64,000 nucleotides of DNA from Lama guanicoe (GCA_013239625.1 MU053758.1:1612001-1676000); one strand, 5' to 3'. Shown: positions 44,732 through 59,800, numbered from the stretch's first letter. Program-made: numbers and translations. The notes: generated by a model not told the origin, from the sequence alone.

Positions 44732-44866
44732 CTAGAAGGAGATGGAAGAATTCCTCGCCCCAAAGGAAGTCAATACAGGGATGGATGTTCTGGAAGCCGA
44801 GGGCTTTTCTGAGACTGGGCTTGAGGTCTCATTCGACCCGCTCATCTCTTTAGATGGTTTAGTGGC
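44732..44866 (-). CDS. SRCIN1: SRCIN1 last coding exon, ATKPSKEMSG...RTSIPVLTSFGARNSSISF* (SxIP-like TSIP motif)
   Basis: tttttgttccag acceptor, 44 codons + TAG. Confidence 0.95.
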   Translation of the reverse strand, partial: ATKPSKEMSGSNETSSPVSEKPSASRTSIPVLTSFGARNSSISF

Positions 44867-50800: not shown

Positions 50801-53800
50801 ACTTGCCCATCTCTAACCACCTGCCTGCCTCTGAGCCTAAAACCTTCTTCAAGTCACATATTCTGGGTATTTCATGGCCCCTACTCCCACGCAGCACTCA
50901 GAATGGGCCTGGCATATAGGAGCTGCTTGGAAATATTTACTGAACCAGACGAGTGCACTAAAGCTTTCTCTCAACATCTAGGCCCAAGGACCACCCTGTA
51001 TCTTTTTTTTTTTTTAATTTAGAAGTAAAACAAAAGTTTAATTCTTAAAACGTATGTTCAACTCCAACATTTTCTATTCTATTTCACATGTTGTTGTGAA
51101 CATTAAATTGATTTTACAACAACCAACAGGTCGTAGGCTGCAGTTTGAGAAACACTGGCTTGAGAAAGTTAATTAACCAAAATTCAAGAGCTACCCAGTG
51201 TTGGAGGCAGAATTCCAACCCTAGTTTGCCCAGATTGAGAGCCTTTACAGCGCTATTAAAAGCATGAAAAGTTTGTGTCTTCGCCAGGGGATGAACAAGG
51301 TATTCATGAGTCTGCAGGTGGGCTCAGTGGAAGCAGTTCACAGACAAATTTAAAAAGACCTTTCACCTTCTACTGCTGCTCATGCCTGCCTAGGAAGGTG
51401 ACTGGAATCTTCCTTGAAATGAGACAGCAGGCACCCTGCATCTTCTGACGGGGCCACAGGTGGGCCACGGGGCACAAACACCCATGGGTGAGGCCCAGCT
51501 CCCTCATTAAATCTGAAAGAAGGCGCAGCACCCCCACCACTCCTGGACCCAAAGTACTTCTCCCCCTTCTCCCCCTCCCCATTCATGTCAGCAGGGACCC
51601 CATTGCAACCCAAATGCAAGACTGAAAAGCAGATGCAAAATTGGTTTCTCCCTCAGCCAGGAGATGGCCTAAGAGCTGAGATGAGAGAGGGGGCCCAAAG
51701 AGCAGGCCGACCTGGGAGCAGAGCGCAGGAAGCAGAGGGGAGGGGAGCGGCAGGAAGATGAGGCATAGAGGCCCTTCCCACACCCTGGGGGCAGGTGGCC
51801 TTAGAAGGGCCCAGGCACTGGGGCTGGTGAGACAGGAGTCTGCTAACTCTGCCTCCTCCAGGAGTGGCTGGGGAGACGGCCCTCTCAGGCCCTGAGTGAG
51901 GGGCCTTTGGAGAGGGGAGCGATCTGGTCTAGAACTAGGTTCTACATGAGTTGGGGAGAGGAGATGGTTCAAGGGACTGGTGGGGCAGTCCTGGCAGGAA
52001 GGACTTCTGGGCAGCCAGCAGGAAGGTCGTCACAGGCATACAAACTGGCAGGAGATGCCCAGCACACAGCACTGCCAGTGGGAAGGGGTGTGGGTCTGCT
52101 AAGGCCCCGCCCCCGTGGCACCCAGGCTTACCTGCTGCTGGGCCTGGATCCTCATGTACTCTGCCCTCTGCTTGCCATGTTTGCCTTTGTCGGGGCTGCC
52201 AGCCTGGCCCTGGGCCGCCTTCAGCCGAGAGGCCCCTGGAGTCACCACCTTCATGGGTGGCACACTACCACCGCCACTCTGCAGGAAGAGGAACAGGGTT
52301 GGGGTTGGAGGTGGGATCAGACGGGCACCCTAGGACAGTGGGCCCTCTGAGACCTGGAGAGCCCTCCCTGGTCCACGTCCCGGCCCAGGACTCAGGCCCA
52401 TTCCACATTTAAGGCCTCCCTGCAGGAGAGGGGCTGGGGGCCTCCAGCCAAGTTCCCAACAGCTGAGTGAGCACTCTTTGGCGGTTTCCTGGAGTAGCCT
52501 AGGGGCAGCTGGTGCCCTTTTATGGGAATCACTTTAAAAGTGAGGGTCCCTGGCACCACTCCCACTCCTGGCCAGGGGCACCATCCTGGGCCGGATAGAA
52601 CATGCCCGAGATTTGGGGGAGGGGTCTTTATAATGGCAAAGTAGGAATGGCAGCCCCAGGCCCGCATCTTCCTCCTATTGGAGGATGCGGGCCAAATCCC
52701 CCTAGAGATAGACAAGTCCAGCCCCCTTGAACCACCCCAGGGACCAGGCCTTCCCAGAGGGCTCTGGGGATCCAGAGGCGCAGGCAGAGAAACAACAGAG
52801 ACAGAGTCAGACAGGAGAGGATGAGGGGAGTGCAGGGGCGGAAATGGGGGAAAGAATTTTATTTGTTGGTTTACAGATACAGAGCAGAGGGGAGGGACCC
52901 CGGTCCCCATCAGGGCTGGTTAGGCTGATCCTTGGGCAGGCCAGCTTCCCAGCCTTCCCAGGGCTCTGCCTGCAAACCCCGCCTGGTACCAGTCTCCTGG
53001 AAGGGTGGTGGGAACTGAGAGAAGGCCAGTGGGAGGAGGAGGGGGCTGGCGCAGTGCTCCTGCAGCCCCCCACTCCCCCCGGCTCTGAAGACCAAGAGAC
53101 TGGAGCATGAAGACAAGAGGATAGGACGGGGCAGGAGGCAAACACCTGAGGGCCAGGGGGTGGGGTTGGGGGGCTGCCAGGGGGCCCCACGGCAGGGGCC
53201 ATGCCCATCTGGCTGAGGGTGGCTTCCAGCTCCTGGAGCGTCTCCTCCAGACTGTCCATCCGCTGAGCGGTGGCACCATGCACTGTGCAGCCCAGGCCAG
53301 CAGCACGCGGACCCTTCCGCTCCCCACTGCGGGGCTGATTGTGTCCAGAGTCCTTGAGGGTCTCCTCTGGATGGCTCTCAGCAGGGGAGGGCTCCTGGGT
53401 CCTCTTCAGGGCTGGCCCCCGAGGACAGGGGACCCCAGCTTCTCCCTCCTCTGGGCTGCAGCCCCCTGTCCCTAGTCTCTTCAGAGCCACCCCTTCCTTC
53501 TCCATCCTCAAGCTGTTTCTGGGCTGGGAAGCCTCAGCCACTACCCCTGGCTGGGCCCGTGGATTATCCCAGCCCTTCCTGCTGCCACCCAGGGTCCGGG
53601 GTCGTGGGATGGGGGTCGTCCTGGGACCAGGTTCCTCAAGCCTGGCCTCTGGTGGGGAGGGAGGGTTGGGGGCACACTCTGTCAAGATGATCCGGGGGAT
53701 GCAGAAGGGCCGGGGGCCCGGGGGAACCTGGGGAGAGAAGAGAGATGAGGGAAGGTGTGATCCCTGCAACCAAAACACCCGAGCTGGGATGGGGGCTAGA

Positions 53801-56800
53801 CGTGGGTGAGCCCAGCCCTTTCCTTTCATAGATGGGGAAACTGAGACAGGGAGGGTCCTGACTGCGTTTAACCAGCAAGTTAGAGGCAAAGCGGGGTCTA
53901 GAACTCAGGCCTCTTTCCACCACACCTCACTTTCTGGCAAAGACGCCAGTTTACCTGGAAGCACAGATATATGTTTACTTCTCATCACCCTTTAAACTCT
54001 GGGAGCAGGTCTCACGGTTACTGCCATGAGTTTGCCCATCTGTGCAATAGGGCAGTAACGTAAGGCTGGTGGAGACTGAAGTGAGCTCATGCGGGCATGT
54101 GCTTGGAACAGTGCCTGACATATCATAAGTGCTCGACAGATATTCACTATTTGTTGAATTGAACTGAAAGTCCAAGACCGGCAGCCCTGTGTGGGTGGAA
54201 ACCAGGTGTTGGCCTCTGAGGGTGGGAAAGTCAGCCTCTTCTTAGGTCAGAGACTCCTGGCCCCCACCCCCTACTTTAGGAGCTTTCTCCAAGGGCTTCA
54301 CAGCTACGACAAGAGGGGCTCGGCCAAGTCCGTCTGCTGCACACAGACTCAGGCTAAGCTGGAGTGCCTGCGTCTGTGTGAGTGTCCCTGGCGCTGGCTC
54401 GGGTCGGGGCACAGAGAGAGGCTCCCAATCAGCCACCACCAACTTGAGTGAATTCTGATCTAATTCTGAGAAGAGTTTTATACCAGGAACTGCCATATAC
54501 GTCTTCATCTTCAACCCTTACTGAACCCCGAGAAATGGTTACTACTCTTATCACTTTACAGATGAGGAAACTGAGGTGGGGGGGTCATGTAATTTACCCA
54601 AGGTCACTTACCCACAGCTAGCTAGTGGCAGAGCCAGGATTTGAACCCAGGCAGTCTGACTCCAAGTCCAGTGCTCTTTCCACTAAACAGAGCCATGGGG
54701 AGATGCATGGGGGGCAGCAAGGACCCCCAGAACCCCCCTCCCAAGGCAACCCCCCCAGCCTTGCCACCTGCTTACCTGGAGGTGGGAGGTGCAGACTAGG
54801 AAGGCAGAGAGGGCGACCCATGCCTGCCCGGCTCCACTGCCCGATGGCGCCTCAGGATGCAGAGGGTCAACCAGCCCAAAGGGCCAGCGGAGGGGCTTTG
54901 TTCACTGGACCCCTTCAGGATTGGCTCCCAGGGCCAGAAAGGGGCAGGGGATGGGTGCAGCGGGCCAAGGTGCTGAGGGCACAGCAGCCTGGGGGCAGCC
55001 CTTCCATATGTTCATCCCCAGACAGCTCCTAGGACTGCTCTTTGCCCATCCTCTGCCCAGCAGACAGCACTGTCCACTCATTTGGTGCTTGTCTGCTCCC
55101 CCCGCCAGGGAGCCAAAGCACCACTAAGCCTCAAGCCAGGCTAGAAATCAGGTGGCGACAAGCATGGAACCCACTGTGGGCCAAGAGAACCAGACGAGGC
55201 AGGTGAGCGTGTACATGCAGGGGAGGCTCCCCTCCCCAGAGCAGAGGCCCTCCTGCTCTAACCTGACTGAGCAGAGGGAGAGATTCCCAGACCACCACCC
55301 CTCAATTCCCCCTCCCCAAGCACAGTCCCCTGGGGTGCAGACAGCAGGTCACCCCCAAATTCCCAGGAAAGAATAAAAAGGAAATAAGTGCAGCAAGACA
55401 GCAGCAAGGACTGAAGTTAGAGAGAAGGAAGAACTTCCCAATACTGAAAGACAGAACCAGCAGCCAAGGAAGGGCATGGGTCTCTTCCATCCCAAGCTCT
55501 TTGATGGGGCCATGGGGCCGAGGGAGGCTATAAATGAGCCTTCCTCCTTTCTGGATGTCCTGGCCCCCAGTGCAAGGCATAGATTCTAGCAGGAGAAACA
55601 GCCCCCACCTGGCACAGGCAGCAGGGTAAGGGACCGTGGGGGCAGGGACCAGGCAAGGACTCAGGACAAAGTCAGATTTTGAGTTGGGCCTAAAGTCATG
55701 CAGTGAGTAAGATCCAAACGCCAATCTTGGACCAAGACAATACCTGGGCTTCAGGCCAGACCTAAACTCTGGCTGCAGATCTGAACAAAATACCCAGGCC
55801 ACCATGGGGCAGACTCAGAATCAAGCTGGTAAGGAAATGCAGACCCAAGGGGCCACCAGATACCAGGCTGCTGGAGTCTCTGAGAGGGAAGGACGGGTTA
55901 AGCACCTGTCCTGGGAGCGGGGGAGGGGGCGAGTCCCCGTGGGTGAGGCTGTGGCAGGGGTGGGACTCAGGGATGTGACTGGCCTTCTAGCGGGTTGGGT
56001 TAGCGTGAGAAGTGAGGAGAGGAAGCTGTGGAGGCACAGGCAGAGACAGCGCTGTGAGAGGTGGGGGGCAGCCCGTTACCTTCCATGTGAGGCCCAGGGC
56101 AGAGCCCCCAGGGGGCCCCGGGTCCTGGGGGGACAGCAAGGTGGGGATCGGCTGGCGGCGGGGCGTGGGGGGGAGGGGAGACATTGAGCTTCTCTCAAAC
56201 ACCTGGGGAGCAGAAGGTGGGGGCAGGTTTGGAGGAGGAGACGCAGGGAGAAAGGGGGTACTGGGCTCTGGCCCAGGCACCCATGGGAAGGGGTGGCCTG
56301 GGCTGGCACTGGGACCCCAGTCTCATTCCTTTGCCCCTCACCATGGCCACCAGCCACTCTGCCCTGCATTTTGTCTCCTCCCAGAAGCCCTGGTGGTCCA
56401 GGTCCCCAGCCTCTCGGGGAGGGGTGCTGAGAACACCAGAGTCTGGGTGACTTACAGCACTGGGAGGGGCTCAAGGCACACGGATAGGAGGGTGTTAGAG
56501 CTTCGGTTCTCAGAACACTTGGGGATGGGGGTCTCAGAGCACAGGGGGCGTGGGGGCAGTTGGGGAGTCTCAGAGACTACAATAAAAAAACTCACACATG
56601 CAAGGAAGGACTTTAGATCCCCTCCCCCACTTTCCAGTGGAGAAGAAACTGAGGCAAGAAGGATGGGATTCTGAACCCGCCTCAGCGGAGAACCGAGAGT
56701 CCATCCCCCTGTCCTAGTCTGGGCACCTCGCCCTGGGGCCTGCTTGGCAGGGAAAAGGGTGGGGCCGGCTGGTGACTCGGGGTCCGGGTGTGCCCCTGAC

Positions 56801-59800
56801 TCACCTCCAGCTCTGCGATGATGCGGTCCTCATCGTCCTCGTCCTTGATGGCAGAGGCCATGATGGGGGGTGTGGAGGCTGGGCGGGCGACCTCTGACAC
56901 GGTCCGGCGCAGCTTCACTTGGGGCTTCTGTACCTCCAGCTCCTCGGACTCAGCCTTCTGCAAGGCCCCGGCCCCCATCAGGACCAGGCTCTGCCCTCCT
57001 CCAGCACCAGCTCACCTCCTAGGCCCTACCACTTCCAGACCATCTCCCACCTGCCCCAGCAACTCATCTGCTGCTTCCTCTGTCCCCTGCCAGGATGGAA
57101 GGAGGAGGAAGCCTGAGCCAGAAGTAGAGTCACCCCTGGCCAGCCTCCTTTTCTTCTACTTCCTCTGAGAGAGGGGACCACACTAGAGGATATCCAGAGG
57201 CCATCTCAGGCATCCCCCCAACTCAACCCCCTCATCCCCTACCCACGGTGGGAGTGGTACCTTGATGAAGGCAGAGTCCTTCTTGCTGGTGACCACAACC
57301 TCTCCAGTGCGCGTGGTGGTCAGGCCGTGGGAGGAGGGGAAGCTCCGGCGGGGAGGGGGTGGCGGGGGCGACTTGGAGGGCTTCTCCGTGCGGTAGCGGG
57401 GCACTGTCAGCTCATCTGTGGGCAGCCAAGGGGTTGGGGGTCAGGGTACTGTAACCCTGGAGTCTGTGTACCACATCTGACTTCAAGCGGATACATTTGC
57501 TTCCTCCTCCAGGGAGAAAGGGAGAGGAAAGCTCAGGGGAAAAGACATGGGCCCCCTCCTCCTTCTCTCCTACTTTCCAACACAATCTAGCCCCAGGCCC
57601 TGTCACACCTCTTATAGACCTCTCATCCCTTGCTACTCAAAGAGTGGTCCTTGGACCAACAGCATTGGCAGCCCCTGGGAGCTTGTTAGAAATGCAGAAG
57701 CTCAGTCCCCACCCAGAGCTGCTGAATCAGAATCCACATTCTAGCTGATCACTGGGTGATTTCACATGCACATTCAACTTTGAGAATTGCTGCTCTAATC
57801 CATCTCGTGCCTGCCCACCCCTCAGCCCTGCCCTGGCACAGATCTTCAGATCTTCATCCTTTCTTCATCAAGAGAGAGCAGTTTTAGTACTATTGTAAGA
57901 GTCTGACCCAGCCCACCAGGATCTCCCTCTCTCCATTTCTTCTGGGGAGGGAGGCACTGTTTCCTGGACAACCTGCAGAAAAATCACTCAAACCTGACAT
58001 TCCTCCACTTTTGACCCCCAGTAGTTACCCATTAACCCAAGCCACGTCCAAGTTCCTTGGCCTTGGCCCAGCACCCTCTGTGCCTGCCAATCTTTCAGCT
58101 TCATTTCCACTTGCTACTCCCTGGCCTGCACCTGCTGGGTAACACCAAACACACACCTCCAGGCATTCGTACATGCTGCTCCCTCTCCCTGGAATGCCCT
58201 CACTGGCCAGGGAAATGCAAGACTCCAATGGAAAGTCTCCTCCCAAGGGAGGCCCTTCCTGCCCTCCCAGGGCCTCCTCTCGGACAGCACAGCACCTCCG
58301 CGGCTGCATCTACCACTCGCATCCTATTTCTGGCTTACACACCTGGTATGGCCTGGGATAGATTATTTAACCATGTTGTGCCTGAGTGTACTCATCTGCA
58401 AAATGGGAAAAGTCACTGTCTCTGCCTCCTGGGCTTTTTGCAAAATTATAAGGATTAATAAATAGAAAGCATTTGGAGCAGCTCTGGCCACACTATAAGT
58501 GCTTGACAAGCATAAATGTTAGTATTATTCACCCACAAGCTCCTTGAAAACAAGCAGTCTTACCTCCTTATCCCCAGCACCCAGCACATAGTAAGTGCTT
58601 AACAAATACACGTGGCAGGAATAAATAAATGAATGAATGACAATTGCCATTTCTGGTTCCGGGATTTGTGCCTCCCCTGGGAGCTCTCGGGCTCAGGAGC
58701 ACTGGAAGCGTGTTGGTATTACTCAGCGCGGCAGCCCGTCTCGGCACGGCCTCACTCCCAGCACATCCTCGGTCAGAATGTGCAGGTGGATGACCTTCTG
58801 CCTGGACTTGCCCCTCCTCCCTGGGTGGTCCTCTCAGCAGCAGCCAGGGCAGTGGAGAAAGCCCTGGATGGAGCCCATTGCTACCCAACCCTGCTGAGTC
58901 TCCCCCTAATGGCTGAAGGTCAGGCCAGCGCCTCCCTCCTCTGGCAGCCCGACCACAAAGACTCTCACTCCCAAGTACCTTCCCCATCACCCAGAGAACT
59001 CCCACAGATGTGGGTACTCTCCCTCTGGGCTCTTCGTCAGCCCCCACCTGCCCCCATACCTGAGCCTCTTCTCCCACTGGGCTCTGTGCGGGGGGCCGCC
59101 TTCTGGCCGTGGGGGACCTTGGGGGGCTTGTGGTCAGGGCTGGGGGCTGGGCCCGGGTGGGCCTTGCTCGCACAGTCCAGGTCAGGGATGGCCTTCAGCA
59201 GCTCCGCCTGTGTCTCCTCCAGGAGCCGGTTGATGTCCTTGGCACTGTACTGGGTCAGGGCTGCCCGCTTCTCCTCCCAGTCCCGCTCGGCAGCCTTGAG
59301 AGGAGGGGGCAACAGTCAGGACTGAAAGGACTCCTGGACCTTTGTTGCCTCAGCCACACATGCAAGGAACGGAAAGGAAGCCTCCCATTTGGTCTGGTCC
59401 CTGGAGGACACTCTAGCTTCTCCTTGAGTATTGCAAGCTTTCCCTGGGAGTTGGGGATGCCATCGTCATTATAAACTACTCCCTGGAAAAACTTAGACCT
59501 CCTTCAGACATTCTATTCTGTTTCATTGAGCACATAATCTATTCTTCTGCTAACACCACATGGCCTCAGTTATCACAGGTTTATAATTTGCTTTTCTGTT
59601 CAGCCAGACTAATGTCACCCTCAATATGCTTCTTGTTCCCCAGGAAAAAGTACCTGCACATCAGCACTTCCCAACCTAAGACAGCGGCAAGAACATGTGA
59701 GCCTAGCTCAGACCCCTCCCCGTCCCGGGCCCAGCACCTCAACAGACACAGCCTTGTCCACGCTTCTCTTGCCAGGAGCATCCAGGCCTTTCGTGGGGTT

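Follow-up and report, generated by a model that had tools for sequence, protein, structure and literature searches.

A Candidate Calcineurin-Docking Site on a 194-Codon SRCIN1 Exon that Likely Shares Ancestry with KIAA1217/SKT

The 194-codon exon and its place in SRCIN1

The window analyzed here is a stretch of 64,000 nucleotides from Lama guanicoe (GCA_013239625.1 MU053758.1:1612001-1676000), in which exons of SRCIN1 (p140Cap) lie on the minus strand. The exon under study and its neighbors are as follows, with positions counted from the first letter of the window.

56805..56954, minus strand: upstream exon (AESE), ending in ...IIAELE, joined in frame
56080..56202, minus strand: 41-residue alternative exon (VFERSS...), matching the SKT exon that begins with AFQKCS or VFQKCT
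53728..53752, minus strand: acceptor with a pyrimidine tract of 0.95 C+T that ends in cag (...ctctccccag, then GTT)
53146..53727, minus strand: the exon under study, of 582 nt and 194 codons, phase 0/0, predicted to be disordered except for one helix
53138..53145, minus strand: weak donor, CAG then gtgtttgc, far from the consensus, with the frame open beyond it
52132..52278, minus strand: downstream exon SGGGSVPP...QAQQQ, joined in frame
44732..44866, minus strand: last coding exon, joined in frame, with the TSIP EB-binding motif at 44788-44777

Translation from 53727 to 53146 on the minus strand gives 194 residues with no stop, and the remaining two frames of the exon contain 6 and 4 stops. 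Since the exon has 68% GC and frame 0 stays open in 1.5% of 5000 nucleotide shuffles, openness on its own is modest evidence for coding; the reading of the exon as a chance ORF is ruled out by conservation. The acceptor has the top pyrimidine share among nine exons compared, and the open frame past the donor ends at a stop at 52809-52807. The AESE exon, the 41-residue exon, the 194-codon exon, the SGGG exon and the last exon form an uninterrupted frame, which is also kept when the 41-residue exon is skipped; none of the four joins tested breaks it. Re-reading of the sequence thus agrees with the first-pass annotation, which had described an open exon of 582 nt in phase 0/0 with a strong acceptor; both peptide islands that it quoted are found in the 194-residue peptide. 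It had also placed the exon outside the canonical AELE/SGGG junction, and a 1183-aa human model (P0322) indeed joins AELE straight to SGGG. The AESE exon itself has a tandem acceptor cagaag (56957-56954, minus strand), which could add or drop one Lys and is preceded by a poor pyrimidine tract (0.36).

The nearest protein to the exon peptide is a Camelus ferus model, differing at 5 of 194 residues, which marks the window as camelid SRCIN1. The peptide begins with VPPG in the window and with AAPG or AAAG in most placentals. A Pfam search with the 194-residue peptide gave no family at E up to 10, a PDB sequence search with a mammalian exon profile gave no match, and a metagenome scan for mammalian exon DNA gave 597 pattern matches, none of which was confirmed.

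Among 3259 candidate proteins, 66 relatives of the exon peptide were found, ranging from marsupials to primates; they are mostly predicted SRCIN1 isoforms, and some are stand-alone "uncharacterized" gene models. Chimpanzee and bonobo models have the exon intact. These matches fit the earlier expectation that the coding exon is open in other mammals, with the proviso that protein searches return open-frame species only, so that broken-frame species are invisible to the count of 66. The exon is also present in 59 of 80 SRCIN1 models of birds, turtles and amphibians. To call it "hidden", as the first-pass annotation did, is an overstatement, because many RefSeq and Ensembl predicted isoforms carry it, from 42 mammal species in our sample. 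The accompanying suggestion that it is annotated only as predicted isoforms holds among the models listed, and no human, named mouse or named rat model with the exon is among the cluster members listed, at most 15 for each cluster. Examples are XP_070939139.1 (Macaca nemestrina X1), XP_016787388.2 (Pan troglodytes X1) and XP_024999875 (Gallus gallus), which have the exon, the acceptor and the two islands in common with the window; such long isoforms differ in being automatic models without an assigned function, and those of monkeys and apes include exon X, of 24 residues, in addition. Twenty public runs contain half or more of the sequence words of the exon, which is weak evidence; four of these runs are recorded as RNA, come from one study and are labelled reproductive system.

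Judged from its conservation, the exon is a real and ancient SRCIN1 coding exon that is already in gene models. No description of the exon-bearing isoform, or of a calcineurin site on p140Cap, was found in the literature covered, which leaves out most subscription journals. In the parts of the sources consulted, the p140Cap studied in dendritic spines, in cilia and in breast cancer is a form of roughly 1200 residues (PMC7904710), and p140Cap is reported to run as a doublet (PMC12510028).

Relation to KIAA1217/SKT and step-wise reduction

The first-pass annotation had pointed to a similar motif in KIAA1217/SKT. For comparison, we used the 66 mammalian proteins together with eight long fish or shark SRCIN1 and 112 SKT proteins, the latter two groups being the best 120 of 300 matches. 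By pattern, the helix near the end of the exon is found in 62 of 66 mammalian proteins, in 8/8 fish and in 110/112 SKT proteins among these best 120 of 300 matches. Among the misses that were read, P0027 and P0043 have the helix with a variant residue and P0059 exits the exon early. Island 1 (FCIPRIILTEC) is distributed differently, being found in 63/66 mammals, 7/8 fish and 0/112 SKT, and three middle blocks are found in 0/66 mammals, 3/8 fish and 95-110 of 112 SKT (fish and SKT again from the best 120 of 300 matches).

Profiles built from SKT proteins only were then run on 43 hand-picked SRCIN1 proteins, one per taxon, and on 2150 shuffles. The helix profile scored 12.4-46.9 bits in all 43 SRCIN1 proteins, with a shuffle maximum of 4.2, and the window exon has the TYKTLDSLEQTIKQLE-type SKT helix at 19.0 bits. 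The likeness is thus supported, as is homology of the SRCIN1 exon helix with the KIAA1217/SKT helix on these profile scores. The middle blocks M2-M4 (AFMIT, PMDIRSAY, KFPKKQL) scored 49-61 bits in two sharks and 21-24 in gar, and M2 scored 25-40 bits in three salamanders. Scores of M2-M4 are patchy in frogs, teleosts and turtles and at most 1.0 bits in five birds; M2 in two marsupials is barely over the shuffle maximum (7.7 and 5.6 versus 5.1), and none of 14 placentals exceeded 0.3 bits for M2-M4. The profile of a further block, M5, was left out, as it failed even on sharks. Since shark and gar SRCIN1 have M2-M4, they form a bridge between the SRCIN1 exon and the SKT exon.

Island 1 and the helix lie 403-420 residues apart in sharks and gar. 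The gap measures 369-378 residues in salamanders and 247-359 in birds and turtles, and it is down to 182-192 in marsupials and to 119-147 in placentals. Other vertebrates end the exon with the motif KPPLLPKP, which none of the mammals tested has. The placental helix lacks its N-terminal half, which bears an otherwise invariant Tyr; every one of the 100 rows of alignment A2 has this residue (Y409), which does not vary in SKT and non-mammal SRCIN1, whereas marsupials have Phe in its place and placentals lack it. Lying three residues before the LDSL core in a YxxL/YxxM context (window codon near 53271), it is a candidate phosphosite lost in therians.

The large C-terminal exon of KIAA1217/SKT has a matching gene position, downstream of the DE-rich AELE/AELQ exon and the one that follows it and upstream of a short exon before the SxIP tail, and has a matching end boundary and the homologous helix; position and boundary were inferred from protein junctions and single-exon frames. 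Open frames resembling single exons, of fish, bird and SKT types, have a common Q|V or K|V end boundary, and the 41-residue exon matches the SKT exon starting AFQKCS. SKT has retained blocks M2-M5 together with the N-terminal, Tyr-bearing half of the helix and lacks island 1, and mammalian SRCIN1 is the reverse. The term "SKT-like", which the first-pass annotation had applied to the isoform, is therefore apt for the helix and not for the rest of the mammalian exon, where SKT blocks are found in 0/66 proteins and island 1 in 0/112 SKT. Likely, one ancestral exon is older than the SRCIN1/SKT split and the mammalian SRCIN1 exon is its shrunken remnant, an interpretation drawn from the profiles, distances and boundaries.

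The large exon is probably optional in SKT too, because a 1406-residue tilapia SKT prediction (P0369) skips it and because lengths of 1373 aa for mouse Skt, with major transcripts near 8 and 6 kb (PMC4683868), and 1943 aa for a human KIAA1217 construct (10.1101/2025.10.30.685566) are given in the sections consulted. Seven KIAA1217 variants have been described (PMC8745027, consulted in part). Reports of KIAA1217 intron retention (PMC7871539, PMC3053589) were set aside, since they concern the last intron, judging from the coordinates in the part of PMC7871539 consulted. A divergent SKT-like group (P0425, P0430, P0444, P0468) has the helix DSIDSLEESIKQLEIS without the Tyr and is probably a second fish SKT copy.

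An AlphaFold model of a 444-residue shark stretch, made with 100 sequences, has a pTM of 0.43; in it M2-M4 are strands and helices with block pLDDT of 80-94, a further helix lies at 399-431, and island 1 has a pLDDT of 46. In SKT and shark SRCIN1 proteins (P0073, about residues 1405-1715), M2-M5 form a predicted alpha/beta unit split by long acidic loops. Island 1 was rejected as a strand of the folded unit because of its low pLDDT, its absence in SKT and its retention in mammals without the unit. Pfam searches on five long SRCIN1/SKT proteins gave AIP3 only, plus a sub-threshold coiled-coil DUF7310 on the helix, and none on the unit. A Foldseek search with the shark model gave no match at E<=0.001, and its RIAM/lamellipodin RA-PH rows (E 3-9) were not accepted as evidence. 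The best Z in a VIA fold search of the same model was 4.5, in rows that span the long helix only, so that the alpha/beta unit was barely probed. The ESM Atlas returned own-family clusters at 0.86 and 0.83 and CEP170_C at 0.82, as leads only. The catshark stretch had 79 matches among 1.84 billion representatives, which by pattern are 20 SKT-type, 23 SRCIN1-type, 13 variant and 23 without type; the 13 examined at length resemble the SRCIN1/SKT family. The models thus point to an ancestral exon that encoded a predicted folded unit without a Pfam family, which would have been kept in KIAA1217 and lost from mammalian SRCIN1.

Candidate docking motifs of the mammalian exon

The motifs of the exon are located as follows.

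53674..53706, minus strand: island 1, FCIPRIILTEC, with the core PRIILT at 53697-53680, a candidate PxIxIT-type calcineurin docking site
53653..53664, minus strand: conserved PPSP, a candidate proline-directed phosphosite 8 residues after the PRIILT core
53596..53613, minus strand: PIPRPR, a candidate PxPxPR ligand of CIN85/CD2AP-type SH3 domains
53206..53259, minus strand: MDSLEETLQELEATLSQM, an acidic amphipathic helix and homologue of the one in SKT

When 24 placental species are compared with the window, identity reaches 0.95 over PRIILTEC, 0.87 over the helix and 0.83 over PIPRPRTL, against 0.54 over the spacer. Whole-exon identity is 0.64, that of the 41-residue exon 0.83 and that of the flanking exons 0.97-0.98. 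In the AlphaFold model of the camelid exon (mean pLDDT 58), a helix at residues 159-173 is the only structured element. On this pattern of identity, mammals kept only three short motifs of the likely ancestral exon, namely island 1, PxPxPR and the helix. The first-pass annotation had noted two islands only and overlooked PxPxPR as the third conserved motif.

These values also bear on the possibility that the exon is a decaying vestige, included at a low level and dispensable in placentals. It has shrunk about threefold, the folded blocks, KPPLLPKP and the conserved Tyr are gone, its donor is weak, and spacer and whole-exon identities are low versus the flanking exons. However, the three motifs hold at 0.83-0.95, and the spacings of 119-147 residues indicate repeated indels with both islands always in one frame, although a search that sees open frames is biased toward this outcome. 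We regard decay without function as very improbable.

Island 1 was singled out as ordered-looking in the first-pass annotation, which overlooked its fit to PxIxIT. The motif I-P-R-I-I-L-T-E is SRCIN1-specific and conserved from sharks to apes. A loose PxIxIT pattern, P[^PG][FILV][^PG][FILV][^PG], has 21,791 matches in human proteins according to the part of the source consulted (10.1101/632547), and it arises in 17% of shuffles of the exon peptide. Island 1 fits this pattern in 73 of 74 distinct contexts, a count partly forced by selection of the contexts, which fixed Pro1 and Ile3 and narrowed positions 5-7. At the unforced positions, L/V/I is found at -1 in 73/74, R/K at 2 in 37/74 and I/V at 4 in 71/74, and measured PxIxIT preferences, as far as the source was consulted, agree with them (PMC6728138). 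Position 5 is Leu in 72/74 contexts, which is within the loose pattern; the named calcineurin binders in the same partly consulted source have Ile or Val there (PMC6728138). Compared with NFAT PRIEIT, PVIVIT, A238L PKIIIT and AKAP79, island 1 has Pro1, Ile3 and Thr6 in common and is alike in its hydrophobic residue at -1, basic residue or Gln at 2, branched residue at 4 and location in a disordered region, since it is without secondary structure in both the shark and the camelid models. It is unlike known sites in having Leu at 5 and in being encoded by an alternative exon that the studied isoform lacks; the only loose PxIxIT match of the studied short isoform is PQVKLR. We give about even chances to binding of calcineurin by island 1, judging from the motif and its conservation.

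In PPSP, Ser is conserved in 68/74 contexts and the following Pro in 59/74; its function as a phosphosite is inferred. Calcineurin and CIN85 are both absent from the main text, as far as consulted, of a paper on the synaptic interactome of p140Cap (PMC5492163). Calcineurin has been described at centrosomes, in a source whose consulted part does not mention SRCIN1 or KIAA1217 (10.1101/2022.06.16.496489).

PIPRPR fits the pattern of CIN85/CD2AP SH3 ligands, given for CIN85 as PXXXPR (PMC2833206, consulted in part), but its conservation is patchy and its background proline-rich. PxPxPR is present in 30 of 43 taxa. Chimpanzee, sloth and sharks lack it, mammals do not have it at the position seen in other groups, and it arises by chance in 14% of shuffled exon peptides. 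The short SRCIN1 isoform already has a PPPPPR match.

Paxillin LD motifs have the consensus LDxLLxxL, and a motif of this type was rejected for the helix, where MDSLEETL has Glu at the second Leu position. The helix has hydrophobic residues in heptad spacing (M157, L160, L164, L167, L171, M174), comprises 18 residues or 2.5 heptads, and has a net charge of -5. A coiled coil needs some three heptads at least, flanked by complementary charges, and the helix falls short of this; a net charge of -5 also disfavors self-pairing. Its shortness and acidity make it doubtful that the helix pairs with itself in a coiled coil. The coiled-coil motif named in the first-pass annotation therefore stands as heptad spacing in a predicted helix, for which 2.5 heptads at this charge are weak grounds.

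That the helix forms a coiled coil by which the exon serves oligomerisation is, in our estimate, unlikely. The 3-4 hydrophobic spacing is clean, the helix is predicted in both models and retained in 43/43 taxa and in 110/112 SKT among the best 120 of 300 matches, and p140Cap and KIAA1217 co-precipitate (10.1101/2025.10.30.685566, section 9, source consulted in part). However, that section does not state that the p140Cap construct held the exon (10.1101/2025.10.30.685566), placentals have only 15-18 helical residues with the charge of -5, and oligomerisation leaves island 1, the best conserved part, unexplained. A two-copy complex prediction of the helix scored 0.03, which gives no answer either way. 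We read the helix, from its length and charge, as a putative binding element for a partner other than itself. Met is found at the helix start (53259-53257, minus strand) in most placentals and Leu in most other groups; speculatively, if translation of a nested transcript began at this Met, the product would be a protein of about 130 residues made up of the helix and the tail.

Transcript routes and biological meaning

Two further features bear on how the exon is used.

54770..54776, minus strand: strong donor of exon X, CAG then gtaagc; models of other mammals join exon X to the acceptor at 53727
52858..52863, minus strand: AATAAA, candidate intronic polyadenylation signal, the sole such hexamer in the 867-nt downstream intron

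The models of the 42 mammal species comprise 17 species with spliced models only, 20 with read-through only and five with both. The first-pass annotation had inferred a long isoform inserted before the EB-binding tail, and the exon is modelled as such a cassette in 22/42 species, while read-through past the donor with loss of the tail is modelled in 25/42; cluster representatives favor divergent tails. All 59 non-mammal models with the exon splice onward, in a search that favored such models. Models of a bat (P0054) and a goat (P0389) use a donor 6-9 codons beyond the usual one.

These counts raise the possibility, which we hold tentatively and which can coexist with the cassette route, that the placental exon is mainly a last exon, with the weak donor skipped, the transcript ending near the intronic AATAAA and the EB tail swapped for the exon-encoded arm plus an unconstrained tail. 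The read-through models and the weak donor speak for it, as does the single AATAAA 283 nt past the donor; the hexamer arises in 2.4% of 2000 shuffles, and protein traces of it (NK or xIK) are found in 22 of 40 distinct read-through tails. However, four of these 40 rows are not true mammalian read-throughs, being one bird mis-hit and three models splicing later, and the tails run 21-183 residues and draw on at least three frames of the same DNA, so that they are unconstrained. The window has its stop about 50 nt past AATAAA, so that cleavage there would leave no stop codon, which argues against its clean use. Unspliced RNA could also produce read-through models, and the exon-bearing non-mammal models are spliced on. 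EB3 binds the p140Cap region holding the TSIP motif (PMC7904710, consulted in part), and a last-exon form would lose this motif.

Exon X spans about 55080-54776 on the minus strand, a stretch that holds no MAG|GTRAG site besides its donor. It is joined to the 53727 acceptor in 16 distinct model contexts (cetaceans, pig, lemurs, tamandua, a bat, monkeys, apes). Monkey and ape models use it as a 24-residue SRCIN1 cassette, and elsewhere it opens stand-alone gene models. These contexts, the sole donor and the four RNA-recorded runs labelled reproductive system would suit a short nested transcript as the main user of the exon, starting in the intron with exon X, spliced from 54776 to 53727 and ending at AATAAA, like the stand-alone "uncharacterized" models. 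However, the frames of exon X vary from species to species and contain stops in the window, the cassette of monkeys and apes belongs to SRCIN1, and one of the 16 contexts (titi monkey) appears to continue through the intron. We consider predominant use by such a transcript quite unlikely.

The explanation that we favor as somewhat probable, from comparison of the sequences, is that the 194-codon stretch is an alternatively spliced SRCIN1 exon and the reduced remnant of a large exon shared with KIAA1217/SKT, and that it would add a predicted disordered arm with three conserved docking motifs, the first of them predicted to bind calcineurin. Inclusion would lengthen p140Cap by 194 or 235 residues with the EB-binding tail kept; the PxIxLT motif would anchor calcineurin on the p140Cap scaffold, the PxPxPR motif would bind a CIN85/CD2AP-type SH3 domain, and the acidic helix would bind a partner other than itself. 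Skipping would give the studied 140-kDa form, with none of the three. Since the motifs are only in the exon-in form, the exon may turn a calcium-phosphatase input to this scaffold of actin and microtubules on or off. The weak donor and the candidate intronic polyadenylation site would add a choice between a calcineurin site with the EB tail and a tail-less form. It is possible, at lower confidence, that a long p140Cap isoform about 450 million years old docks calcineurin, that placentals choose between forms with and without the EB tail, and that KIAA1217 alone, versus mammalian SRCIN1, keeps the folded domain of the ancestral exon.

Alternative exons with short motifs are common, and this exon itself was already modelled; what is new is the decay series, in which a predicted domain was lost, together with the candidate calcineurin-docking site. 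The comparison also points to a predicted folded KIAA1217 domain without a Pfam family. After depolarisation, rat Srcin1 ranks with the proteins under the heaviest phospho-regulation, with no mechanism given in the part of the source consulted (PMC6415872). If the long form recruits calcineurin, there would be a direct link from calcium signalling to a Src-inhibiting actin and microtubule scaffold.
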